Assembly (NCBI GenBank): GCA_031961545.1
Contig: JAVRLK010000001.1
Span: 6,596 to 70,595, forward strand
Source: Thermoplasmatota archaeon
GTDB lineage: Archaea; Thermoplasmatota; Thermoplasmata; Thermoplasmatales; ARK-15
Direction: 5' to 3'
DNA: 64,000 nt
The notes under the pieces are model-generated. The model worked only from the letters and a program-made list of their open reading frames with translations, was not told the DNA's origin and ran no database searches. Position 1 is the first letter of the stretch. Each line of letters begins with the position of its first letter. Shown here piece after piece: positions 2,567 through 45,857 of this stretch. A program made the translations under genes and the position numbers.

Positions 2567-4492
2567 ATGGCGGAAGGAAAATTAAATAAAAGGGGAATTG
2601 CTTTTATAATATCCATTATAATTATACTTTCAGGTATTGCTGTCATAGTATATGCTCAATTAAATGAACAGTTAATTTATGTAAGGGTGGTTGATACTAA
2701 TGGAAATCCCATATATAATGCTACAATCCAGGGAATGATGCTTACACCACCATCAAATGGTTCCATATTCCAGACAGTATTTTTAACGCAAACCGAGCAT
2801 AATGGTAATGCAGTTGTTTCAAACTTCACTTTACTTAAAAGGATCTCAAATGAATGGTTAAGATACTACCATGGAAATTTCTCAAAAGCATCCTACCTTC
2901 CAGAGCTGATTCTTTTTGTAACATACAAATTCAATGGAAGTTTGTATTTTAAAGAAGGTAGTATATCCCTCACTCCAAAGGACATTTTAAATGGAATGTC
3001 AGGAAAGGCAGTTGTTGTGGTGAAACATGACAAAAGTGAACATTTAGTGAATGAAACGAATGTTACAACCTCTGTTCAATTAAATTCTTTGGAAAATAAA
3101 ATACAAAATAATATTGGTATCCTTTTACGAAACATTACCTTTCCCGAACCTTATTTTTACTGGGTAATGCAAAATAATACTTTCTATCCATCGAAACCTG
3201 GTCACCTCGCACAGATCCCCATTGCATGGGCTACATTTGCTGGTAGTGCTTATGGCGAGATTGTTACACAAATTGGGGTATTTCCAGCATCTTATGCTGG
3301 CTTGGTTCTTAATCCCTTTTCATCAAAAAATTTAGAATTTAATACTGGTGGTTCGGTTCTCACTGTCGAGTATTCGGGAATTGTAAAAAGTGCTCTAGTA
3401 TTTTTAGGGGACAAAACATTGAATAGGTTTAGCGTTGGATCATCCGGTTACATATATATAATGGGGCAGATTGAACTGGCTACTTATCAATTATATTACA
3501 TTCCTTCTGAAGTAGGAATGCCTGAGCCTCTAAATGACTATATGGCTGAAGCAGCCATTGTTTCTATAAGTACATCAAATAATCAGGTTATATTGGGTAA
3601 TGGAACAGGGATACCTTCTGTATTTTCAAAACTATCGAATTATACAAATTATCAGTTTTATAATGCAAGTAGTGGAACAGGCTCCGCTCCTAACTCCCAG
3701 ATTTTCTCTGGGGAAATTTACCAGAGTTTTGAAAATTACGGACTATTAGTTCAAGCTGTTATACCAATAGGTGAAATTCTTGCTGCAGAAGCTGAACCTG
3801 AAACTGAGATTTTAGGAATAGCCAGCTCAATTGTAGGTGCTATTCTTGGATTTTTTGTATGGCAAAGCTATTCAGGAGCTATGTTTACTACTATTGCTTA
3901 TTGTGCAGCACCTGGGCAAATAGTAGATGCATATGTTCTCTATTCAGATGTATCTTATCAAATAAATGGTCAGGGTTCCATAGAACTACCAATGATGGGT
4001 GCATACATCTACACAACATCATCATCTGGCGGTGGTGGAGAAGGTTGTGTGGTTTACGAAACAAACATCACATTATCAAATGGAGAACAAATACCTGTAC
4101 AGGATCTTAAGGTGGGAATGAAAACACTCTCCTACGATCCAAATACTGGAGAATTAATTACAACAACGGTCTCTCAAATTAAGGTTTTGAATTCTTCTTA
4201 TATTATGATAATAAATGGAAATATTGAGGTGACAGGATTAAACATACAACCAATATTTGTAAAGTTTGAAAATGGATCCGTTGGCTGGACTATGATCGGA
4301 AATTTGAACTATACAATGCAAATATACTGCCCTCTGAATAACACATGGGTTCCCGTAACATCTCTTAAAATCATATTCGGGAATTTCACCGTATATGATA
4401 TAATGACTGCAAGACAGATTTCAGGAGGATACGTTTACAGTGATTACATAGCAAATGGATATCTTTTGGATTCAAAACCAACACCGATATAA
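2567..4492 (+). CDS. secreted or membrane sequon-rich protein with a C-terminal Hint (Hedgehog/intein-like) domain
   Basis: N-terminal signal or anchor GIAFIISIIIILSGIAVIVYA|QL and at least 12 N-x-S/T sequons. A hydrophobic helix ILGIASSIVGAILGFFVW precedes SSSGGGGEG|CVVYETNITLSNGEQIPVQDLKVGMKTLSYDPNTGEL (Cys codon 4046-4048). The protein ends YIANGYLLDSKPTPI. Confidence 0.75.
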   Translation: MAEGKLNKRGIAFIISIIIILSGIAVIVYAQLNEQLIYVRVVDTNGNPIYNATIQGMMLTPPSNGSIFQTVFLTQTEHNGNAVVSNFTLLKRISNEWLRYYHGNFSKASYLPELILFVTYKFNGSLYFKEGSISLTPKDILNGMSGKAVVVVKHDKSEHLVNETNVTTSVQLNSLENKIQNNIGILLRNITFPEPYFYWVMQNNTFYPSKPGHLAQIPIAWATFAGSAYGEIVTQIGVFPASYAGLVLNPFSSKNLEFNTGGSVLTVEYSGIVKSALVFLGDKTLNRFSVGSSGYIYIMGQIELATYQLYYIPSEVGMPEPLNDYMAEAAIVSISTSNNQVILGNGTGIPSVFSKLSNYTNYQFYNASSGTGSAPNSQIFSGEIYQSFENYGLLVQAVIPIGEILAAEAEPETEILGIASSIVGAILGFFVWQSYSGAMFTTIAYCAAPGQIVDAYVLYSDVSYQINGQGSIELPMMGAYIYTTSSSGGGGEGCVVYETNITLSNGEQIPVQDLKVGMKTLSYDPNTGELITTTVSQIKVLNSSYIMIINGNIEVTGLNIQPIFVKFENGSVGWTMIGNLNYTMQIYCPLNNTWVPVTSLKIIFGNFTVYDIMTARQISGGYVYSDYIANGYLLDSKPTPI

Positions 4493-4643: not shown

Positions 4644-4732
4644 CAATGAAAATAATAGCATACAATATAAGAATGATAATAGTCCTAAATGATTCTGGAA
4701 TTATTTTTATTGTAGAGGTTTTCTACAGAGCT
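4644..4732 (+). mobile_element. solo terminal remnant (about 89 bp) of the IS5-like element found intact at 44945-45949
   Basis: caatgaaaataatagcatacaatataa...ttgtagaggttttctacagagct is the reverse complement of 44945-45033 with few mismatches, including the terminal AGCTCTGTAGAAAACC. Confidence 0.85.
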
Positions 4733-5109
4733 TAGTTTGATCAAACTCTTTTATATTTACTTTCATTATAATGAGAGGTGTGTTTGCACAACATGTTTAA
4801 TCACTCACATCTCCATTTACATGCAATTTAAATATTTTATTCATAAAATAATTTAGTTAACATACTAATCATTTTGGAAATATTTATATCCTTTTCATTC
4901 ATATTTCATTTTGCCTCCTGAGGACTCTTATCCAGGAGTTATCTCCTGCTTACACAAAATTCTTATCATTGTCATAGATTTGTTCGATCAATCTTTAATG
5001 ATTATTTAATTCATAAAAATAATGAAATTGATTTTTTAAAAAATTTAATATGAAATATAAAAATTTTAAATGACAAAGATTATAATCGAATAGTAATTCT
5101 CTGTTCCGG

Positions 5110-8952: not shown

Positions 8953-9730
8953 CTTTGATATAATCTTCCCTCGATCTGAAAATGTATTTAAGATAAACAT
9001 TTTCATTAAGGTAAATATAAAAACCAATCGCCCTGAAAACAATACCCTTCCATTCAGGAGTGATGTTAAAAAATTCAATAATGTTATTATCAAGAACCTT
9101 ACCTATTTCCTTTCCAAGAAAATATGCTTTCTTTGAACCCAGCAAAAAACCGTATCTGTAATGGGGGAATCCACCATCAATTATACCAAAATCACCTGCA
9201 CCATAGAAATTTCCATACCTTAAAGGCTTCACTTTTCTTAGAATATACCATTCCTTCAATATTATTTCATCTGTAACGTAAAATTCACCTGTTATTTTAT
9301 CTTCCTGAATTTCCAGAACAAGACCTCCCCTTGCCCTCAGATAATCGTTTCTATTTCTTATCTCCACATGTATGTGCGGATCTGTCCATGGTCTAAAATA
9401 GGGTGAAATGTAAAGTTCTCCAAGGGTTTCTTCTGGATCAACAGTATCACCTATATTTACGGATGGTTTAACATGTAGAATCTTTACATAAAATCCATCA
9501 GAATCAATAATAAGAACATGCTCCTCCATACCATTCTTTCTCATTCTGTGAACCCTGTAATCAACAACTTTGCCATAGACGGGTGAATTCACATAACACA
9601 ATTTTCTGCTTGATGGAAAAATATCCACGGCCTTGAATTCCCTATGTGAAAGGAAAGGTGAATTGAGGAATGTGATGAATGAATCGTTATCAGCATAAAT
9701 TTCAACCCCATGTTTTGCTATTAAATTCAT
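8930..9730 (-). CDS. hypothetical protein with an M23/LytM-like (duplicated hybrid motif) segment
   Basis: GDTVDPEETLGELYISPYFRPWTDPHIHVEIR resembles the M23 G-x-V-x-G...HLHfE core. No signal peptide is seen. Confidence 0.45.
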   Translation of the reverse strand: MNLIAKHGVEIYADNDSFITFLNSPFLSHREFKAVDIFPSSRKLCYVNSPVYGKVVDYRVHRMRKNGMEEHVLIIDSDGFYVKILHVKPSVNIGDTVDPEETLGELYISPYFRPWTDPHIHVEIRNRNDYLRARGGLVLEIQEDKITGEFYVTDEIILKEWYILRKVKPLRYGNFYGAGDFGIIDGGFPHYRYGFLLGSKKAYFLGKEIGKVLDNNIIEFFNITPEWKGIVFRAIGFYIYLNENVYLKYIFRSREDYIKAKDIFQQ

Positions 9731-15315: not shown

Positions 15316-16251
15316 TTATAAGTCTTTTTTAACCTTTTTCTTTTTTAAATATACTAATGAGATTGAAATGATTAAAATCACACCTATTGATACTGCGAGA
15401 ATGAAATAATAATTAATTTGCTGTGAAGCACCCATTGGTATGTTTGTGGAATTCAATATTATGCTAGAATTAATCCAACAATAAACCGTGATAGGTCCAT
15501 CAACTAAAGTTGTTATATTTGCATTCCACTTTACTATAATTCCTGAATATTTATCTATATAAGCTGTTGCATTTCCAGAGCTAGAGGTAAGATTATCACA
15601 GAAATTCACTTGTACTTTAATTACAGGATATATTTCATTGTTTATATTTATGGTTAAATTACTACTTGCATTTGCATTTATTTCAGACGGAGGAAATATA
15701 GAAACAATTCCTGTTTCAGGATTGGAACTGCTTCCGAAATCTAATGAAAGTACAGTTGAAAGATTCTTTGGCACAAATCCCTTACTTAATTCATTCAAAG
15801 TTTTTTGGTTTATGAAAAATATAGTGATTGGTTGATTTATGTTTGCAGTTTCATTGAAATATTCTCTAAAATTATAATTAAATGTAAGGTTCCAAAATTT
15901 ATAATTATTCTTGGTAGCTTCAACATCTTGGGGGTATGGAAATAAGGCTATTATAGCAGGATTCCCTGGAACAGATTCAAGATAAGAAAATGTCTGAGTT
16001 TCCTGATTAATAGAAAGAATCTTATATAATAAAATTGAGGTTGTGTTGAGATAAGTATGTTTTGTCTCACTAGTGATATATACATTACTATTTTTTTCAA
16101 AATATTTAACGTAAGCACCTAAAAAAGCCCAGACAGGCTCATTTATGTTATTACCTTCTACAATACTACTGAATGTAAACATAATAAGCAATAAAATTAA
16201 AAAGAATGATATGATTTTGAATTTTTTCAGAGAGTTTTTAACTTTTTTCAT
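15316..16251 (-). CDS. type I membrane protein with many N-glycosylation sequons (signal peptide plus C-terminal TM anchor)
   Basis: N-terminal IISFFLILLLIMFTFSSIVEG and about 11 N-x-S/T sequons. C-terminal TM YYFILAVSIGVILIISISLVYL is followed by KKKKVKKDL. It starts 4 nt after the upstream Hint protein gene. Confidence 0.7.
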   Translation of the reverse strand: MKKVKNSLKKFKIISFFLILLLIMFTFSSIVEGNNINEPVWAFLGAYVKYFEKNSNVYITSETKHTYLNTTSILLYKILSINQETQTFSYLESVPGNPAIIALFPYPQDVEATKNNYKFWNLTFNYNFREYFNETANINQPITIFFINQKTLNELSKGFVPKNLSTVLSLDFGSSSNPETGIVSIFPPSEINANASSNLTININNEIYPVIKVQVNFCDNLTSSSGNATAYIDKYSGIIVKWNANITTLVDGPITVYCWINSSIILNSTNIPMGASQQINYYFILAVSIGVILIISISLVYLKKKKVKKDL

Positions 16252-16255
16252 TTTT

Positions 16256-17332
16256 TCACCCGCATGGATTTGCTATTTTATCCGCAAGCACATATTCCCA
16301 TCCTATAAAATTATGATTTATTAGCAGGACAAAATCATACATTATTATTGGATTATTAACCTTTTCTATAGAAAACACTGGAATGGTTGTATTGGTAATA
16401 GGATCGTATAAAGTATCATTCAATGTTAAATTACTTGCATCTATAAATCCTCTTTCTGTAAGAACCGCTTGATCTCCTGCAATTTCTAAATACCCATTGA
16501 TAACATAACTAGAATTCTCATATGAAATTAGTACCTCCTTCACCATTGCTGGTTGTAATTGACCTGTAGTCATATTATATGTCATTAATTCATCTCCTGC
16601 CGAAATGTCCTGAGCTAAAATATAAGTATAATTTGCTGTTAAAATAGGGGTAGATCCTGATACACAACTTCCTCCACCTTTACCACTTTCATTAAGACCT
16701 CCATTATTTAAAAACTGTTGAACAGTTCCAACTATAAGAGATGAAGTCATAATGCCATATCCATCAGCTTCTGGATAACCAGCAGGATAATTTGGATCAT
16801 TTAAGAACTTTACTTCAACAGTTATATTAAGGGGTAAATTGCTATAATTTACTTCATTTACTGAATTAAGTATAGATAATAGATGTACTTCACAATCTTG
16901 TTCTGATTCATTTAATGTCCAAGCAAAACCAGCTGCAAGATCTTGGTAACTTTGGGGTAAACCTTGTGAAGTTATTATGTACGTGGGAGTGTAAAATGTT
17001 TTAATACCAGATACATTACTAAAAATTTGTATTAGAAAATGAGTATCTCCATTGAAGGTAGTGTTAGCATAAGCCCATAAATTGATAGCAAGCTTACCAG
17101 TAGAAGTATCATTTAAAAAAGTAGCATTCACAGTAATGGATGCCCAATTTCCATGATCATCATATACTTCTGCATAATCATATCCTGGATTATTCTTCCA
17201 GTTATAAACATAGAGAAGTGTTTGTTGACCATGGACTAAAGGGATAACCATGATGATCAAAAATAATGCAACTCCAATAACCATTATTTTATTGTTCTTT
17301 ATTGATTTTCCATAACCCTTTCTCATTTTCAA
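16256..17332 (-). CDS. secreted sequon-rich protein with a C-terminal Hint (Hedgehog/intein-like) domain
   Basis: Signal peptide IMVIGVALFLIIMVIPLVHG|QQ and 8 sequons before the linker. GKGGGS|CVSGSTPILTANYTYILAQDISAGDELMTYNMTTGQL follows (Cys codon 16664-16666). The protein ends NHNFIGWEYVLADKIANPCG. The Hint part aligns with that of 2567-4492. Confidence 0.75.
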   Translation of the reverse strand: MKMRKGYGKSIKNNKIMVIGVALFLIIMVIPLVHGQQTLLYVYNWKNNPGYDYAEVYDDHGNWASITVNATFLNDTSTGKLAINLWAYANTTFNGDTHFLIQIFSNVSGIKTFYTPTYIITSQGLPQSYQDLAAGFAWTLNESEQDCEVHLLSILNSVNEVNYSNLPLNITVEVKFLNDPNYPAGYPEADGYGIMTSSLIVGTVQQFLNNGGLNESGKGGGSCVSGSTPILTANYTYILAQDISAGDELMTYNMTTGQLQPAMVKEVLISYENSSYVINGYLEIAGDQAVLTERGFIDASNLTLNDTLYDPITNTTIPVFSIEKVNNPIIMYDFVLLINHNFIGWEYVLADKIANPCG

Positions 17333-18548: not shown

Positions 18549-19772
18549 CTAAAGTGCGAGAGTTCTGCGTATAGGTTCTCTATCGAGAACCATTTCACGC
18601 ATATACTCGCCGTGCCCCGACGAGGGAGCTATACGCTCCAAACCTCTTTTTAATATGTTTATTGATGCATTCAAGTCTCTATCCATATTAATTCCACAAA
18701 CAGGGCATTTGAATACCCTGTTGCTTAATTTTAGCTCATGATTAACATAGCCACAATTTGAACAGGTCTTGCTCGAGTCCTTTGGATCCACCTTTATTAT
18801 CTCTCTACCATATAGTTCCCCTTTCCATTCCAATATACGGAAAAATTCACTCAAAGATATGTATTGCAGATACTTATTCACTTTTCTCCTTACCACTTTG
18901 CTTCCTTTTTCTGATTCCTTCAACTTTTTCAAATTAAGATCTTCCACAACCACATATTCGTGGCTATTGAATATGTGGTTTATCGCCTTGTAATAGAAAT
19001 CTATCTTGATGTTCTGAATTTTCTTCAATATTTTGTCTCTCCTTCTCTCCAATCCCTCTATTCTCTTTGATCTCTTTATTCCCCTCTTTTTGTTTATTGC
19101 ACTTTTCTTATCAATTGTACTCTGCAATCTCTCCTCTTTACGAACCAGAGACATTATTCTCTTTGTCTCCAGTGATATTACTTCTCCATTGCTCATGGTT
19201 ATTGTGTTCTTTACACCCACATCTATGCCTACCGCTTCACCATTCTTTTCTTTTTCCTCTTTCTCCTTTTCGTACACAATGTAAGCAAAGAAACCATTCG
19301 CATCCTCTTTTACCCATACCTGTTTTGCTGTTCTCTTTATTCTATCCCATTCTGCCTTCTTTGTTATCTTGTCCTTGATGCTCACCCATCCAATGCTTGG
19401 AAGATAAAGCTTTATGCCCTCAAACTTAAACCCCTGTGGAAATATCAGTATGCCATCATACCTGCTTTTTTTCTTAAACTTTGGAAATCCTTTCTTTCTT
19501 TTTATTCCATCTTTCAAACTTCTATTCAATTTCCTGGCGATCTGTTGAAGCGTTTGACTTGGAGATTTTTTCAAAAATGGATATTCTTCCTTCATTCTTG
19601 TTATCTCTTTACACATATCCGAATAGAATAGAAATTTCTTCTCTTTTCTGTATATCTCCTTGTTTTTCTCCAGTAACTTATTCCACACAAACCTAATATT
19701 ACCTAATGATTGCTTGAGCAACTGAATTTTTGACCGCCTTGCGTATATTTTAACCTTGATTACACTTCTCAT
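18549..19772 (-). CDS. tnpB: TnpB (RNA-guided RuvC-like nuclease of IS200/IS605)
   Basis: RuvC-I GIDVGVKN and RuvC-II VVVEDLNLK. Zn finger CSNCGY...CPVCG. RuvC-III DRDLNASINI. Confidence 0.9.
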   Translation of the reverse strand: MRSVIKVKIYARRSKIQLLKQSLGNIRFVWNKLLEKNKEIYRKEKKFLFYSDMCKEITRMKEEYPFLKKSPSQTLQQIARKLNRSLKDGIKRKKGFPKFKKKSRYDGILIFPQGFKFEGIKLYLPSIGWVSIKDKITKKAEWDRIKRTAKQVWVKEDANGFFAYIVYEKEKEEKEKNGEAVGIDVGVKNTITMSNGEVISLETKRIMSLVRKEERLQSTIDKKSAINKKRGIKRSKRIEGLERRRDKILKKIQNIKIDFYYKAINHIFNSHEYVVVEDLNLKKLKESEKGSKVVRRKVNKYLQYISLSEFFRILEWKGELYGREIIKVDPKDSSKTCSNCGYVNHELKLSNRVFKCPVCGINMDRDLNASINILKRGLERIAPSSGHGEYMREMVLDREPIRRTLAL

Positions 19773-26074: not shown

Positions 26075-26677
26075 ATGAGCGTGAAAATTTCTATAATATA
26101 TTATTCTCTCTATGGATCCACATACCTTCTTGCAAAGGAGATTGAAAAGGGAGCTCTTGATGAGGGGGCTGAGGTAAGATTGAGAAGGGTGCAGGAAACG
26201 ATACCTGAAGAAATATGGAAGAATTTAAAGGGCGTTCCAGAAGCTAAAGAAATGCAGAAGGATGTTCCAATAGCAACAATTGATGATCTTGTATGGGCAG
26301 ATGGTATTGTTCTTGGTTCACCAACAAGATTTGGTAATATGGCCGGGCAGATGAAAAATTTTCTTGATCAAACAGGATCTCTCTGGGCAAAGGGTCTTCT
26401 TTATGGAAAACCGATCGCATTTTTCACAGGTGCATCAACAATACATGGTGGTCATGAAACAACAATACTCACCATGTCAACCTTTGCATACCATCATGGT
26501 ATGATAATCGTACCGTTGGGTTATCCAAGCGATTACGTGGGAAAAACGAGATCTGGTGGTGGACCCTATGGACCATCACACAATGGAAATTCAAGGGACT
26601 TAACTGGTGAGGAAAGAGAAATTGCCAGGGAAATGGGAAAAAGGATAGTTCAGGTTGCTAAAAAATTAAAGGATTAA
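26075..26677 (+). CDS. wrbA: NAD(P)H:quinone oxidoreductase, WrbA-type flavodoxin-like protein
   Basis: KISIIYYSLYGSTYLLAKEI, GSPTRFGNMAGQMKNFLD and GGHETT. Confidence 0.85.
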   Translation: MSVKISIIYYSLYGSTYLLAKEIEKGALDEGAEVRLRRVQETIPEEIWKNLKGVPEAKEMQKDVPIATIDDLVWADGIVLGSPTRFGNMAGQMKNFLDQTGSLWAKGLLYGKPIAFFTGASTIHGGHETTILTMSTFAYHHGMIIVPLGYPSDYVGKTRSGGGPYGPSHNGNSRDLTGEEREIAREMGKRIVQVAKKLKD

Positions 26678-29600
26678 ATTTTTTCAAGCAATTTTAGAGC
26701 TATTTCCACAGCCCTTTCAAGCTGAACATCCCTTCCCATCGAATAATCCTGGGGAGTGTTTTCCACATAAATATCCGGTTCTGTTCCTCTATTTTCAATT
26801 CCGAATCCCACATCCTTAAACCAGAATGCGTATTCAGGTTGCGTCACAACAGTCCCATCAATGAGCCTTCTCCTTGGATTTATTCCAATAACACCTCCCC
26901 ATGTTCTTGTTCCTATAAGTGGCCCTATTTTCATAAGCTTGAATGCGTGGCTGAAAATATCACCATCAGAACCCGATAATTCATTGGTAAGGCATACAAC
27001 AGGTCCCTTCGGTGATTCTGGTGGATATTCTGTTTTCATTCCATGCCTTGGATTATCGTATCCTATGATCTTCCTGTTCAATACTTCGAGCAAAAGTGGT
27101 GAAACGTATCCTCCTGTATTAAATCTAACATCTATTATTAGCGCCTCATGCTCACTTTCTTCAAGATAGTTTAAGAAGAATTCGTTGTATCCCCTGTTAC
27201 CCATATCAGGTATGTGAACATATCCAACCCTGTTATTGCTTATTCTATGAACAAAATCCTTGTTGTTCTCAACCCATTCCCTGTAAATTAGATAAGATTC
27301 ATCACCGAGAAGTTTAACGTTCCTCGTGATCCTTTCATTTTTTCTTAATAATGTTATCGCGACAGTTTCATCTGCCATGTTAAGAAGGACCTTCCCTGGT
27401 GGGTTTGTTTCATCAAGGTCAATACCGTTTATTGATAGAATAACATCGCCCTCCATGGCATCGGCACCTGACTTTGATAATGGTGAAATATCATCCATCC
27501 TTCCCCTGTAAATTTTCTTTATGTAATATTTTCCATTGTAATCTATCTCACCACCAAGAAATCCAATGTTTTCCCTTGGTGAATAATGGTAATCACCAAG
27601 ATACTCGTATGAGTGTGATGTTCCAAGTTCGCCCTGCAATTCCCATATGAGATCCGAAAGCTCTGACCTTGTAGAAATTTTATTTAAAAGATCATAATAT
27701 TTTTTGAAAATATCATCCCATTTTATGTTTTCATCCCTCCAGTAATTTTCCCTCATCAATGACCAGGTTTCATAAAGCATCTGGCTGAATTCTTGTAAGG
27801 GATTTATTTTTAATTTTATCCTTGAAATGTCAATTATTCCTGTTTCCTTTCCTGGATTTGTATTTTTCATTTCACTTTTTTCTGTGGAACTAACAACCCT
27901 CAGCATATTTTCATTCTTATACAACATTTTTGTTCTATCACCTGACAAAACAAAAAATTCGGCCTTTTCAACAAACACTTCATCCTTTCTATCATTAATG
28001 TTGTAATGTCTTATTTCACCGGCGGATTGATCCTGTGATGATAATGTTAGATTATGGTATAGAAAACCATTCTTTACACCTGCAATCCTGAAATATCTTC
28101 CTTCAGGTAAGGGAACAGGTATGATCCTTTCATCAATGTTTTCAAACTCAATCTTAATTTCTTTCTGCTCCCCATCAGGTTCATAGAGAAATGGGTTCTT
28201 TATTCCACTGTTAAGTGTGATTAAATAAATTTTTGAAGGTAAAGGATAGGAAAGGTTGTATCTTATAATTTCATAAACAGGTGAGGAACTGTGCAGGGAT
28301 ATGAAATAAAGGTATCTGCCAAGTGGATCAAAGGAAGGTGAAAAGATCCATCTGTAATTCTTTTTAATATCAACGAATTCCATTGTTTTTATGTTCCTTA
28401 TCCTCAATCTATTTTTATTCTTTTCCTCAGAGATCACATATGCTATGTAATTATCATCAGGTGAAATATCAAGGTATTCTATTTCCTCACTTTTAGTTCT
28501 GTCAATAAACTTTAATTCCGATTTTTCAAGATCAACGAGATAGAGTTCCTGTCTCATTGTTGATATAAAAGCAATCTTCCCTGAATTTGATACCCAGAGA
28601 TGCTGTATTGGTCCAACATCCGTATCTATGATCTTTTCAATTCCATTCTCACCGAATATGGTGATCTTTTCCTTTCCATTTTCTACAAGAACTGCTATGT
28701 TTTTATTATCCCTGGTGAATTGAACTAGCCTGTTCCTTATTCTATCGTTAACAAAAACAGGACCTTCCCAGTTTTTCATCCTTGCTACCTTTCCCCTTAT
28801 ACAGAGGGCAATTTCCTCACCGTTCTGGTTGAGGGAAATTCCATCAAGATAATTGAGGGGATTTTCAATCATCCTTTCCTGCAAATGCTTTTTTGAACCA
28901 TAAATATCAAGAGATAATTTTTTCAATTTTCCATCGTAAATGTAAATATCCCCGGCCATCTGAAATACAATTCTTTTTCCATCAGTGGATGCAAACCTCG
29001 CGTAATAATCATTGTTATCTGTGTGAACCATTAAATCATTACCATCAAGATCACAGGAATATATTCTTCCAATCCCTTCATGGTCGGATATGAAAAATAT
29101 TCTACCATTCAAGAGCATTGGTGATGCCAGATTACCATTAATATTCTCCAGAATTCTTTTAAAAGTTTTTCCACCATCCTTTGAAACCCATATCTGGCCT
29201 ATTGTACCTCCCCTGTACCTCTTCCATCTTGCTGGATCAGCGGTGTTTCTTCCAAGTATAATTATATTATTTTCAATGTAAATATCGTTTGCCGGACCAT
29301 ATGGGAGCTTTTCGGGCATACCAGCTTCTGGATCAATGTAAAAAATTTCGTTCCATGCATTCTTTGGACTTTTATGACTTGATGAAAAGTAGATTTTACC
29401 GTTGAAAAATCCCAGTACCTTTAAATTTCTGCTACCCAAATATGTCAGCCTTTTTATATTTCCTCCATTTGATGGAATAACATAAAGGTCCGATTTAATT
29501 GCATTTCTTTCATCACCATGATTTCTGTATAGGGCGAATGCAATCAGAGATCCATCTTCTGATATTTTTGGGTACTTTACAACACCAAAACCATCCGTGA

Positions 29601-29697
29601 GCCTTCTCAGATTTTCATCATATATCCATAGGTCATCTTCTGTTACAAATGCTATTTTATTATCCCTTATGGATGGATACATCAGATAATGATCCAT
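26674..29697 (-). CDS. tri: tricorn protease
   Basis: 1007 aa. Beta-propeller N-terminus (IAFVTEDDLWIYD...), a PDZ-like segment and an S41-like C-terminus (NELSGSDGDIFSH). Collinear with the Thermoplasma tricorn core as I recall it. Confidence 0.85.
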   Translation of the reverse strand: MDHYLMYPSIRDNKIAFVTEDDLWIYDENLRRLTDGFGVVKYPKISEDGSLIAFALYRNHGDERNAIKSDLYVIPSNGGNIKRLTYLGSRNLKVLGFFNGKIYFSSSHKSPKNAWNEIFYIDPEAGMPEKLPYGPANDIYIENNIIILGRNTADPARWKRYRGGTIGQIWVSKDGGKTFKRILENINGNLASPMLLNGRIFFISDHEGIGRIYSCDLDGNDLMVHTDNNDYYARFASTDGKRIVFQMAGDIYIYDGKLKKLSLDIYGSKKHLQERMIENPLNYLDGISLNQNGEEIALCIRGKVARMKNWEGPVFVNDRIRNRLVQFTRDNKNIAVLVENGKEKITIFGENGIEKIIDTDVGPIQHLWVSNSGKIAFISTMRQELYLVDLEKSELKFIDRTKSEEIEYLDISPDDNYIAYVISEEKNKNRLRIRNIKTMEFVDIKKNYRWIFSPSFDPLGRYLYFISLHSSSPVYEIIRYNLSYPLPSKIYLITLNSGIKNPFLYEPDGEQKEIKIEFENIDERIIPVPLPEGRYFRIAGVKNGFLYHNLTLSSQDQSAGEIRHYNINDRKDEVFVEKAEFFVLSGDRTKMLYKNENMLRVVSSTEKSEMKNTNPGKETGIIDISRIKLKINPLQEFSQMLYETWSLMRENYWRDENIKWDDIFKKYYDLLNKISTRSELSDLIWELQGELGTSHSYEYLGDYHYSPRENIGFLGGEIDYNGKYYIKKIYRGRMDDISPLSKSGADAMEGDVILSINGIDLDETNPPGKVLLNMADETVAITLLRKNERITRNVKLLGDESYLIYREWVENNKDFVHRISNNRVGYVHIPDMGNRGYNEFFLNYLEESEHEALIIDVRFNTGGYVSPLLLEVLNRKIIGYDNPRHGMKTEYPPESPKGPVVCLTNELSGSDGDIFSHAFKLMKIGPLIGTRTWGGVIGINPRRRLIDGTVVTQPEYAFWFKDVGFGIENRGTEPDIYVENTPQDYSMGRDVQLERAVEIALKLLEKI

Positions 29698-30904: not shown

Positions 30905-31022
30905 CTCAAAAGCCTATTAAAAATTCATTATTTAAACATTTTACACTTTAAGTTAATGTTCATTTTCGTTAATTTTTGAAGATTAAAAGAATTTAAATAT
31001 TTCTTCAAATTACCATTTTCAA

Positions 31023-31108
31023 TGGGGAGCTTCTGAAAGAGGCTGAGAGGATTCCTGAATGAGGAATCGACCCATTGAACCTGATCCGGGTAATACCGGC
31101 GGAGGGAT
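31023..31108 (+). promoter_or_regulatory. TPP (THI-box) riboswitch
   Basis: GGGGAGC..GCUGAGA-GGAUUCC..GGAAUC-G-ACCC-AUUGAACCUGAUCCGGGUAAUACCGGCGGAGGGA matches the THI element core. Its 3' GGAGGG doubles as the SD, 6 nt before the ATG at 31114. Confidence 0.9.
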
Positions 31109-31113
31109 TAATT

Positions 31114-32358
31114 ATGGAAATAAAAAAATCGGTAAGAAAAACGGAATATCAGAAGGGACTTTTGATTTCATCCTCCATGGGTATGTTTGTCTGGGGTATT
31201 ATTGCTGCGATAGCTCCACTGACCACATCATGGCCATTCATTGAAACATTGCCAAAGATTTACGAAAGTATATTCCTTTTTTTACCAACAACATTCATGA
31301 TGATTGGTAATCTTATTTTTGGCGTTCTTGCAGATTACGTGGGCAGGAAGAGAATATATCTTACAACAATCTTTCTTTATGCTGCAGGCTTCTTTACAAT
31401 CTTTTTTGCAAATAATGTATACATTTTAGTTCTTGGTATTGCACTGAGTGAACTGGGTGTTGGTGGTGAGGAGGTTACAACTCTATCATTAATATCTGAA
31501 GATATACCTGTAGAGGAAAGAGGATTGTATCTTGTTTTTGTTCCAAACATGAACAATATTGGTAGCACAGTCATTGCCTTCATATTCCTTTACTTTTATT
31601 CTTCATCAATATATATACAAAAATTATATTTTGTTGGTGTAGCACTATTTGCAATTTCCATTGCAGTTATTACAAGATACAGGGTTCCAGAATCTTTCAG
31701 ATGGCTTAGGGATGTAGGTAAAAATAAGGAAGCAATTGAAGAAATGAAAAAAATATCACTCACACCTGAACCAAAGAAGGTAAAAGCACCAAGTTTCGTG
31801 CCAACTCTCTTATTCCTCGGTGTACTTGGAATTTCACAGTATTTAACTTTTGGTCTCATGGCATATATAATTGGACCTTACTATTTCCCACAAAATAGCA
31901 GTTTGATAATTTTCATGGCATCTCTTGGTGCATCGGTTGCTGGCTTTATAGCCATGTATGCAATAAATATAAGCAGGAAAATTTTCGCACTGTTCTCCTA
32001 CTTTGGTGGTTTTATTACAACAATACTCATACTTTATTTGTTTAACATCTTTGAAAATTTCTATATATTCCTGATAATGCTTTTCATAAACATGATGTTT
32101 TCTGAATTTGCATGGGCAACAAGGACAACACTTGAACCTGAACTTTTCCCCACAAAAATAAGATCCACCGCTATTGCACTAATCAGAATTTTCCCAATGA
32201 TATCATATATATTTTCAGTTTTTTTCACAGCCACATTTACTTTACAGCAATTTATAATTTACAATATTGTTCTCTGGGGCATCGGGGCGATCTTTACTTT
32301 GATATGGTATTTCATTGGAATTGAAACAAAAGATATCAGTATGGACTTCATTCAATAA
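31114..32358 (+). CDS. MFS-type transporter, riboswitch-controlled (candidate thiamine or precursor transporter)
   Basis: About 12 predicted TM helices and an MFS loop DYVGRKR. The start was moved to the ATG at 31114 because the tracked start (31075) lies inside the riboswitch. Confidence 0.75.
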   Translation: MEIKKSVRKTEYQKGLLISSSMGMFVWGIIAAIAPLTTSWPFIETLPKIYESIFLFLPTTFMMIGNLIFGVLADYVGRKRIYLTTIFLYAAGFFTIFFANNVYILVLGIALSELGVGGEEVTTLSLISEDIPVEERGLYLVFVPNMNNIGSTVIAFIFLYFYSSSIYIQKLYFVGVALFAISIAVITRYRVPESFRWLRDVGKNKEAIEEMKKISLTPEPKKVKAPSFVPTLLFLGVLGISQYLTFGLMAYIIGPYYFPQNSSLIIFMASLGASVAGFIAMYAINISRKIFALFSYFGGFITTILILYLFNIFENFYIFLIMLFINMMFSEFAWATRTTLEPELFPTKIRSTAIALIRIFPMISYIFSVFFTATFTLQQFIIYNIVLWGIGAIFTLIWYFIGIETKDISMDFIQ

Positions 32359-33150: not shown

Positions 33151-33194
33151 CGTTTTAATTATTTCTCGACTGTATATAAAACTTTGTAAAATAT

Positions 33195-33528
33195 AGTTCT
33201 GGGAAAAACATCTATAATAAAAAGTAAATCCAGAATCATTTTTGAATAATATTCTCCCATATATTATATGCTATTGTTTTCATTGTAATTTCTTTTTCAA
33301 ATCTTTTTGTAATTATTGATCCCACAAAGGATCCTTTTTTCTGAATTAAAAATTACACTGTATCAACAATCAGTCTTCCATTTTATTATTCAGGTAAATG
33401 CCTTTTCATCCTATTCCTGTTTTCTAAGTTGGTAGATTTATTGGAACATTTTCATTTATTCCGGGTTTTATTGCAAAAAAACAAAATTTTTTATCATTAT
33501 TTTCAATGTTTTTTTATTCTTTTGAATC
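33195..33528 (-). mobile_element. degraded remnant (about 330 bp) of the IS5-like element (end plus transposase C-terminal region)
   Basis: Collinear by eye with 44945-45290 at roughly 70-75 percent identity. For example, agttctgggaaaaacatctataataaaaa aligns with agctctgtagaaaacctctacaataaaaa, and caggtaaatgccttttcat with caggcaaatgccttttcat. Confidence 0.7.
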
Positions 33529-44840: not shown

Positions 44841-44929
44841 TTTCAGGTAGGCGTTATCAGCCAGCACAAAAACTGGCGGTTTACTTAGGTGGAAACGCCA
44901 TTCCACGGATTTCACTACATTTATATGAA

Positions 44930-45857
44930 CTATATAAATTTATCAGCTCTGTAGAAAACCTCTACAATAAAAATAATTCCAGAATCGTTTAGGACTACTA
45001 TTCTCCTTATATTGTATGCTATTATTTTCATTGCAATTTCTTTTTCAGATAGTTCTGGAATTCTTGATCTCACAAATGATCCACTTTTTCTTTTTATTAC
45101 TGAATGCACCGTTTCAACTATCGGCCTTCTATTGTATTCTTCAGGCAAATGCCTTTTCATTCTTTTTCTATGTTCTCCTCTAGTACGATGTATTGGAACA
45201 TCTTTATTTCTTGCAGGTATTATTGCCATAAGACCATATTTTTTGGCAATGATATGATTTTCTTCTGAATCATATCCCCTGTCACCAATAATGATCCTGA
45301 ATTTTCCAATTATTTCCCTATCCATATTTTCCAATGTTTTCTTGAACTCTTTTGAATCATGAATCTCTCCAAAGTAAGCATCATATGAAACAATCAGTTG
45401 TGAATGATCATCCACACATATTGTTGTTTTAACATACTTTTTCTTAACCTTCCTTCCAAAATCATCAAGCCTTTTATCGTAGTGAAAAGAATGATAATCC
45501 ACAGAATATCCAGTACTGTCAATTACCATTCTGTTTCCTAACATTCCCATAAAAAATTTCAGGATTTGATTGAAAACAAATGTAATGAGTGCTTTATCAA
45601 TCCTTTCTGAAAATTTCTGAATTGTTGTAAAATGTGGTATTTCAGAGAGAGAATAAAAGCTCAACAAATGCAGGATTTGATGCTATTATTTCAATAACAT
45701 CACGATAACTTAGATTATTCCAGTTTTTGTAAATAAATATGACAAAAAGCTGGTAGATCATATATTTCTTCTTGGAAAATTTGGAAGAATAAGCTAGAAG
45801 AAGTCTTTTGGATATAATTACAGCCTGTTCGATAAATTTATATTCATGTGATTTCAT
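44930..45857 (-). CDS. IS5-family DDE transposase encoded in two overlapping frames (+1 shift needed)
   Basis: The 71-aa and 245-aa ORFs overlap at 45642-45667. DDE elements are VIDSTGY, IIGDRGYDSEE and NRRPIVETVHSVIKRK (R-x3-E-x6-K). Confidence 0.75.

Follow-up and report, generated by a model that had tools for sequence, protein, structure and literature searches.

A histidine-free HINT domain at the C-termini of archaeal surface proteins: a putative extracellular autocleavage module

HINT domains are known as inteins, as the autoprocessing domains of Hedgehog proteins, as bacterial intein-like (BIL) domains and as pretoxin modules, and almost all of them use a histidine in block B. In canonical inteins and in Hedgehog, mutation of this histidine abolishes thioester formation. 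BIL domains have been divided into A-, B- and C-types (Amitai et al. 2003; Dassa et al. 2004, as summarised in PMC7765530 and PMC5874633). According to the first of these summaries, BILs keep the N-terminal intein motifs, and the B-type keeps T-x-x-H and loses the C-terminal motif (PMC7765530). The pretoxin HINT domain (PT-HINT, PF07591) of polymorphic toxins precedes the C-terminal toxin (PMC3482391). Here we describe a gene at positions 2567..4492 (forward strand) of a 64,000-nucleotide stretch of DNA from a Thermoplasmatota archaeon, which we refer to as the window. It encodes a protein of 641 residues, predicted to be a secreted or membrane glycoprotein, whose C-terminal HINT domain belongs to a type that we call Q-type, for the glutamine found in place of the block-B histidine. 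We consider extracellular autocleavage at the N-terminus of this domain, between Gly493 and Cys494, to be its most likely function, and we hold this with moderate confidence, the catalysis being predicted from sequence comparisons.

Membership of the C-terminal domain (residues 494-641, 148 amino acids; 4046..4489, forward strand) in the HINT superfamily, with a true HINT fold, is secure by predicted structure and by profile. An AlphaFold2 model of the 153 C-terminal residues, built with an alignment of 38 family sequences, is all-beta and reached a predicted local distance difference test score (pLDDT) of 91.7 and a predicted TM-score (pTM) of 0.85. A Foldseek comparison with the PDB gave 48 matches with E <= 1e-3, and the best 50 of its list were all BIL, intein or Hedgehog structures, that is, HINT domains. 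The best match was BIL2 of Tetrahymena BUBL1 (E 5e-9, TM-score 0.77); others were the Clostridium thermocellum (Cth) BIL 2lwy (TM-score 0.75/0.83), the TvoVMA, DnaB and DnaE inteins and Hedgehog 1at0 (TM-score 0.65), with a range of 0.70-0.77 for BIL domains and mini-inteins. We also searched PDB sequences with two profiles, one made of the two C-termini of this type in the window and their relatives (A2) and one of 38 family domains (A3). The A2 profile matched the Cth BIL at 1.9e-7, along with several mini-inteins, and the A3 profile matched the Spl DnaX mini-intein at 6.5e-11 and the Cth BIL at 3.9e-10. With the target sequence alone, Pfam returned PF01079 weakly (E 0.14, 12.2 bits, against a gathering cut-off of 29.7), and the PDB search gave chance matches to tissue factor. 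No Pfam or NCBIfam model captures the Q-type at curated thresholds, the domain in the window included; among the 38 members, 15 match Intein_splicing weakly, 3 match Hint_2 (PF13403) weakly, and weak matches to PT-HINT occur as well. A full-length AlphaFold2 model made with the 8 close homologs had a pLDDT of 30.3 and is unusable for the ectodomain or the hydrophobic hairpin described below.

The window holds exactly two Hint copies. The second lies at 16256..17332 on the reverse strand, in a signal-peptide protein of 358 residues (Cys223 at 16664-16666, Gln288 at 16469-16471). A preliminary description of this DNA had taken the two proteins for paralogs that share a C-terminal cassette on unrelated ectodomains, and our comparison agrees: residues 485-630 of the target align with residues 214-355 of the paralog (31% identity over 151 columns, E 4e-12, BLASTP), and outside the C-termini, hence over the N-terminal 490 residues or so, BLASTP gives no significant segment.

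Of the features by which HINT domains are recognised, the target shows the nucleophile at position 1 of block A (Cys494, codon TGT, 4046..4048) and lacks the Thr-x-x-His of block B. The loss of the block-B histidine had already been noticed in the preliminary description, which read the replacing residue as the asparagine of TGLN (Asn559). In the profile alignments to inteins and BILs the residue at this place is instead Gln561 (4247..4249), within TGLNIQPIF; the target's subfamily carries an insertion of two residues in block B relative to the AGDQ of the paralog. In these alignments, Gln561 pairs with the histidine of TGNH in Spl DnaX and with that of DHP in the Cth BIL. The aspartate of the Y-D motif at position 4 of block F is Asp611 (4397..4399). 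The Asp-Ser reported for the C-terminal pair is Asp635-Ser636 (4469..4474), followed by five residues and the stop codon; it stands in place of the intein His-Asn, and the last aspartate pairs with the penultimate histidine of the intein ending LLVH(N).

To describe these positions in the family, we re-aligned 238 domain instances from the best 150 proteins; the block-B residue divides them cleanly into three types. H-type domains (121 instances; PT-HINT in Pfam) have the signature C-F...T-x-x-H...Y-N...H-x-Y...H-N; they are internal in 110 instances and often form back-to-back tandem arrays. Q-type domains (93 instances) begin with a Gly-rich linker followed by C-V and continue as [S/A/T]-x-x-Q-P...Y-D...D-Y-I-A-N-G-x-L-L-D-[K/S/D], with 0-7 residues left before the stop, and 90 of them sit at the extreme C-terminus. 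E-type domains (21 instances) carry Ser1 and a glutamate at the block-B position and occur as tandem pairs at C-termini. At position 1, 199 of 219 instances have Cys and 18 have Ser (217/219 together), serine being the only recurrent substitute, and this position follows a flexible Gly-rich linker, which in the target forms the junction GGGGEG/C. The block-B Gln is invariant in the A3 alignment; three residues ahead of it, Leu, Ala or Ser takes the place of the Thr. At position 4 of block F, Asp is found in 79 of the 93 Q-type instances and Asn in 102 of the 121 H-type instances. The columns of the C-terminal pair hold Asp, Tyr, Gln or Glu, and then Asp, Lys, Arg or Ser. All three canonical histidine positions (B:10, F:13 and G:6) are replaced, by Gln, Asp or variable residues, and F:4 has gone from Asn to Asp. 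The alignment columns with the highest conservation include Gln72, Tyr116-Asp117 and Gly30. The Q-type domain has few charged residues, and its Cys1 is a lone cysteine: there is no conserved second Cys, and cysteine makes up 0.9% of residues. We rejected a role of Cys1 in a disulfide, as no conserved partner exists, and a lipobox at the GGGG-C junction, as this lies about 490 residues from the N-terminus, the wrong position for such a motif.

Several subfamilies of the Q-type end in short cysteine-containing tails (PCG, IIC, GGIHAC, LMC and CGGCL), and the C-terminus of the paralog (16256-16282) is one of these; the subfamily of the target ends in LLD[KS]K without Cys.

With neither a C-extein nor a terminal Asn, the domain can neither splice nor cyclise an Asn, and the only reactions left to it are cleavage at its N-terminus or the passing of its thioester to a different nucleophile. 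In the scheme that we favour, the protein would be exported through Sec and N-glycosylated at the surface of a Thermoplasmatales-like archaeon. Cys494 would attack the carbonyl of Gly493 in an N-to-S acyl shift, water would resolve the thioester, and the glycosylated Hint domain would be detached. A mature protein of about 460-490 residues would remain anchored in the membrane by its hydrophobic hairpin (residues 393-432), and by the N-terminal anchor too if this is not cleaved. Several features suggest that the Gly493-Cys494 bond has kept its chemistry: Cys or Ser at position 1, the Gly linker, no partner Cys, the terminal position, Gln at B:10 and Asp at F:4 and G:6. With its histidines replaced and the Asn of block F turned into Asp, the active site looks as if remodelled to suit the acidic exterior of Thermoplasmatales-type cells. 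On general chemical grounds, a histidine would be permanently protonated there, carboxylates would titrate usefully and the N-to-S shift would be favoured, as the released amine becomes protonated.

Several observations weigh against autocleavage. Both hallmark residues of block B are gone (Thr to Ser, Ala or Leu, and His to Gln). Two family members keep the remaining domain with another residue at position 1, Tyr in L003 and Arg in P0061, which indicates that the domain can persist without its nucleophile. If the domain were a propeptide to be thrown away, one would not expect it to be more conserved and glycosylated than the remainder of the protein, and the argument from acid adaptation leans on a habitat deduced from few loci. 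The loss of T-x-x-H and of the C-terminal His-Asn, and the members that have no nucleophile, would be explained if the domain were a catalytically dead pseudo-enzyme. It would remain part of the protein and, in glycosylated form, would serve for structure, binding or anchoring; for example, it could bind surface proteins and exo-enzymes to some conserved constituent of the surface of the wall-less cell. Sequence conservation also fits this explanation. Identity among orthologs is 88-95% in the Hint domain and 62-80% in the ectodomain, and the sequons of the Hint domain are conserved. In the comparison with the homologous locus L001, amino acid differences amount to 4.7% in the Hint domain and 20% in the ectodomain, and synonymous-codon differences to 7% and 14%, respectively. 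As judged from these values, the Hint domain is under strong purifying selection, and they indicate a fast-evolving, possibly diversifying ectodomain.

A dead domain would, however, leave much of the pattern unaccounted for. Nearly every instance has Cys or Ser at position 1, always behind a Gly-rich linker, and the cysteine is a lone conserved extracellular residue without a disulfide partner. The block-F Asp and the terminal Asp occupy known active-site positions of inteins and co-vary with the Gln, and the domain is exactly terminal, which a plain binding module need not be. In addition, L003 has lost Cys1 and the block-F Asp together (YD to YN), as expected if the two residues are functionally coupled. 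We therefore regard the pseudo-enzyme as an appreciable possibility, though one that we would not bet on, and autocleavage as the better account. A second role of the Hint domain, such as binding or folding, is probable, as no other part of the protein is so well conserved.

Compared with the described HINT systems, the domain is closest in structure and in profile to BILs (solved examples are 2lwy and 6y75). As in BILs, it measures about 140-150 residues, has no endonuclease, is found in variable, secreted and non-conserved proteins rather than in housekeeping genes, and would be expected to cleave rather than to splice. It shares with B-type BILs the loss of the C-terminal His-Asn but also lacks their T-x-x-H, and it differs from A-type BILs, which have a conserved His-Asn without a +1 nucleophile; the H-type relatives, ending in LVHNK, fit that description. 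Whereas BILs are bacterial, Q-type domains are archaeal (Thermoplasmatota), form the last domain of their proteins and are dense in sequons; their block-B Gln is invariable, the Thr is not kept, and blocks F and G both have Asp. PT-HINT domains are the closest non-Q relatives in our exhaustive search and are likewise extracytoplasmic and self-cleaving. However, they keep Thr-x-x-His and a His-Asn ahead of the toxin, while nothing follows the Q-type domain, and the H-type relatives are sequon-poor (0.53 per 100 residues) and often in tandem. With class 1 mini-inteins (Spl DnaX, Ssp DnaB, Npu DnaE), the Q-type shares recognisable blocks A, B, F and G (CV..T.I, xxxQP and VYD...DYIANG.LLD), but it is not inserted in a host protein and has no +1 nucleophile, terminal Asn or block-B His. 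The layout resembles that of Hedgehog (PF01079, 1at0), with a signal peptide, a secreted domain, a Gly-Cys junction and a C-terminal Hint domain of the same fold. It differs in having neither the sterol-recognition extension nor T-x-x-H, in being prokaryotic and in a sequence nearer to BILs and mini-inteins. On its motifs and its architecture, the target is neither an intein, nor a Hog domain, nor an A-type or B-type BIL, nor a PT-HINT domain, as these are defined.

The likeness to the Hedgehog precursor raises the possibility that the Gly493 thioester is resolved not by water but by a hydroxyl group on a lipid of the membrane, a lipoglycan or a glycan. This would fix the mature protein, and in relatives the proteases, covalently to the surface of a cell that has no wall. 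The best structural match is the BIL domain of BUBL, which has reportedly been proposed to conjugate through its thioester. Furthermore, the paralog, the fusions to S8 and S53-type proteases and many other members have no anchor besides a signal peptide that is probably cleaved. On the other side, the protein ends 0-7 residues after the Hint domain, with no extension that could recognise an adduct, no conserved partner gene accompanies the family, and the target has a hydrophobic anchor of its own. We consider such a transfer improbable, and we see equally little chance that a histidine-free, acid-working site made of Cys, Gln, Asp and Asp esterifies, outside the cells of wall-less Thermoplasmatota, the C-termini of secreted glycoproteins and proteases to membrane lipid or lipoglycan.

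The size of the family depended on the search. A word-indexed protein search returned only 8 close relatives of the target and 5 of the paralog, and a profile run returned 5. In contrast, an exhaustive HMMER search with the A2 profile brought up 5376 representatives at E <= 1e-3, of which 1176 reached E <= 1e-10. The Q-type alone spans at least 69 clusters at 50% identity, and family clusters are named 'hypothetical protein' throughout. Literature searches for archaeal, Thermoplasma or surface-protein Hint domains brought up no account of a Hint domain at the C-terminus of archaeal surface proteins. The Q-type is best described as a large, archaeal, previously uncurated C-terminal HINT subfamily. 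Upstream of the domain, Pfam recognises a Peptidase_S8 subtilase in P0018, a pro-kumamolisin or sedolisin-type protease in P0060 and CarboxypepD_reg with DUF2341 in the adhesin-like proteins P0089, P0110 and P0114; in many Q-type proteins the upstream part has no recognisable domain. The preliminary description had suspected a modular family from the two copies in the window, and the search extends the cassette to dozens of different N-terminal architectures. The matches in GTDB are metagenome-assembled genomes of Thermoplasmatota, and one member (L006) has archaeal marker and acid-protease genes as neighbours. Restriction to Thermoplasmatota and a link to acid may be suggested from these few loci.

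The weak Pfam matches of members to Intein_splicing and PT-HINT, and the fact that the nearest relatives outside the Q-type are tandem arrays of the PT-HINT type, might suggest that the domain is a degenerate intein or pretoxin cassette that has lost its C-extein or its toxin. This explanation is hardly credible. All 8 close homologs and the distant ones end at the same point as the target, and the terminal position holds across the Q-type clusters counted above. The domain is under strong purifying selection, there is no homing endonuclease and no interrupted host protein, and nothing Hint-like lies downstream of the target gene in the window. The claim of the preliminary description that the cassette is not an ordinary intein remnant is therefore borne out.

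The other types have arrangements of their own. In the E-type proteins (P0017, P0020, P0039, P0055, P0062 and P0084), which have Ser1 and D-x-x-E in block B and are sequon-rich, the two C-terminal copies always form a tandem pair, of which copy 1 ends in NGYLIDK and copy 2 in NGYLI followed by the stop. H-type arrays comprise up to 4-5 complete Hint domains joined directly, with no spacer domains (...LVHNK/GGGC FL...), for instance in P0053, P0014, P0029, P0034 and P0059 and at L008 2976-6170. Such spacerless arrays are an unusual arrangement for self-cleaving modules. At L004, directly past the stop of the 1101-residue Q-type protein P0143 (6001-9306), a Hint-like fragment of 63 residues (9323-9511, forward strand) matches the Q-type profile at E 6e-13; it may represent a second copy in decay or a tandem interrupted by a stop.

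Autocleavage as proposed here would take place outside the cell, and the distribution of N-glycosylation sequons (N-x-S/T) bears on this. The target has 18 sequons, or 2.8 per 100 residues, whereas the cytosolic open reading frames of the window have about 0.4. Exactly 12 precede Cys494, in line with the 'at least 12' counted before, and 6 fall inside the Hint domain, whose density (4.1 per 100 residues; 4.4 for the Hint part in its own family) exceeds that of its ectodomain. Among Q-type Hint domains the density is 3.3 per 100 residues, 2.4 times the 1.4 expected from composition. Five of the six Hint sequons of the target (542, 569, 581, 591 and 606) are found at the same position in 9-13 of 14 relatives that are 42-54% identical. 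The hydrophobic region and the linker have 0.27 sequons per 100 residues in the family. Archaeal N-glycosylation acts solely on the outer face of the membrane, and together with the conserved sequons this suggests that the Hint domain is extracellular.

A hydrophobic helix about 60 residues ahead of the Cys had been taken in the preliminary description as a membrane span that could place the Hint domain on the opposite face. The helix is there: ILGIASSIVGAILGFFVW corresponds to residues 415-432, 62 residues before Cys494, and one segment (residues 413-431, Kyte-Doolittle 1.91) passes a simple hydropathy threshold, as a single span with a cytoplasmic Hint domain would require. This topology is nevertheless contradicted by the dense, positionally conserved Hint sequons and by the confinement of N-glycosylation to the outer face. 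Moreover, in members that have no internal hydrophobic segment the Hint domains are equally sequon-rich. In the family alignment, the hydrophobic region consists of two Gly/Ala-rich arms of about 15-20 residues with a short Pro/Gly/Asp loop between them; in the target (residues 393-432, 3743..3862) these are arm 1, LLVQAVIPIGEILAA, the acidic loop EAEPETE and arm 2, the helix just mentioned. The region would form a hairpin or a re-entrant anchor, after which the chain would be back on the side of the membrane from which it came, and we regard a single span as very improbable. If the N-terminal signal is cleaved, the hairpin may serve as the membrane anchor of the mature protein.

The rest of the protein is organised as expected for an exported precursor. 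The whole gene is supported by the list of open reading frames and by the 8 close homologs with the same start and end, and the full-length family comprises proteins of about 600-660 residues, among them L002, L003, P0068 and P0081. Residues 1-30 (2567..2656) form a signal peptide or signal anchor that is conserved in homologs; its hydrophobic core (residues 10-28) has a Kyte-Doolittle value of 2.98, and cleavage after VYA (VYA/Q) would follow from the -3/-1 rule. The ectodomain (residues 31-392, 2657..3742) contains the 12 N-terminal sequons and evolves fast. It shows a weak immunoglobulin-like or CarboxypepD_reg-like signal at residues 34-84, with weak Pfam matches to DUF7382 and Big_1. The linker that joins the hairpin to the Hint domain (residues 433-493, 3863..4045) is, in the homolog and family alignments, sequon-free and beta-rich, and ends in the Gly-rich junction SSSGGGGEG.

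The surroundings of the gene vary. We found no synteny around it, even with the L001 copy, which is 81% identical. We also compared the genes that flank family members, both in the window and at the loci L001-L004 and L006, to find a conserved partner, and the neighbours share no similarity. As no neighbouring gene is conserved, the Hint module looks autonomous and the locus variable. The presence of an insertion sequence (IS) remnant about 150 bp downstream was confirmed: the similarity starts 152 nucleotides after the stop, at 4644-4732, and is 94% identical to 44945-45033. The remnant (4644..4735, forward strand) is a solo end of the DDE_Tnp_1 family that corresponds to the end of the transposase gene at 44930-45550 (DDE_Tnp_1), the sole transposase-bearing copy among three IS-end copies of about 90-110 bp in the window. 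The third copy, at 33173-33285, is also a solo end and is 76% identical to 4644-4732. The description of the locus as accessory-looking is thus in agreement with its lack of synteny and with the IS end that it carries.

Elsewhere in the window, a gene at 15316-16251 (reverse strand) starts 4 nucleotides downstream of the paralog, with which it is probably co-transcribed. It encodes a protein of 311 residues with 3.5 sequons per 100 residues, an N-terminal signal and a C-terminal transmembrane segment followed by a KKKK tail, and none of its homologs was found beside other family members. About 1.2 kb from this cluster lies a TnpB/Cas12f-like OrfB_IS605 gene (18549-19772, reverse strand, 407 residues). 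Two riboswitches score above their Rfam gathering scores, one for thiamine pyrophosphate at 31013-31124 (forward strand) and one for fluoride at 44841-44914 (reverse strand), the latter directly adjoining the transposase-bearing IS copy. A full-length homolog of tricorn protease is encoded at 26674-29697 (reverse strand; E 3.5e-159 to chains 1k32 and 1n6d). The enzyme of these structures is that of Thermoplasma acidophilum, and the homolog supports a Thermoplasmatales-like origin of the window.

Taken as a whole, the family is a large archaeal clade in which the nucleophile is kept, every catalytic histidine is swapped for Gln or Asp, and the domain ends exported, heavily glycosylated proteins, proteases included. 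An active domain would carry out the N-to-S acyl shift with a catalytic site of a new kind, which should work at very low pH and would be of interest for the mechanism of inteins and for acid-triggered self-cleaving tags. Should esterification to a lipid or lipoglycan hold true, prokaryotes would have their own equivalent of Hedgehog cholesteroylation, and a way of anchoring proteins other than by sortase or archaeosortase. The presence of a Hedgehog-like precursor layout in archaea bears on the origin of C-terminal autoprocessing domains, and an inactive domain would provide a clean case of a pseudo-enzyme with a HINT fold that was taken up as a module of the surface. For the archaea themselves, an active domain would mean that wall-less acidophiles, whose surface biogenesis is poorly understood, mature or anchor their surface proteins by such a step. 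The Q-type domain may thus be a new route by which wall-less, acid-loving archaea process or tether their surface proteins.

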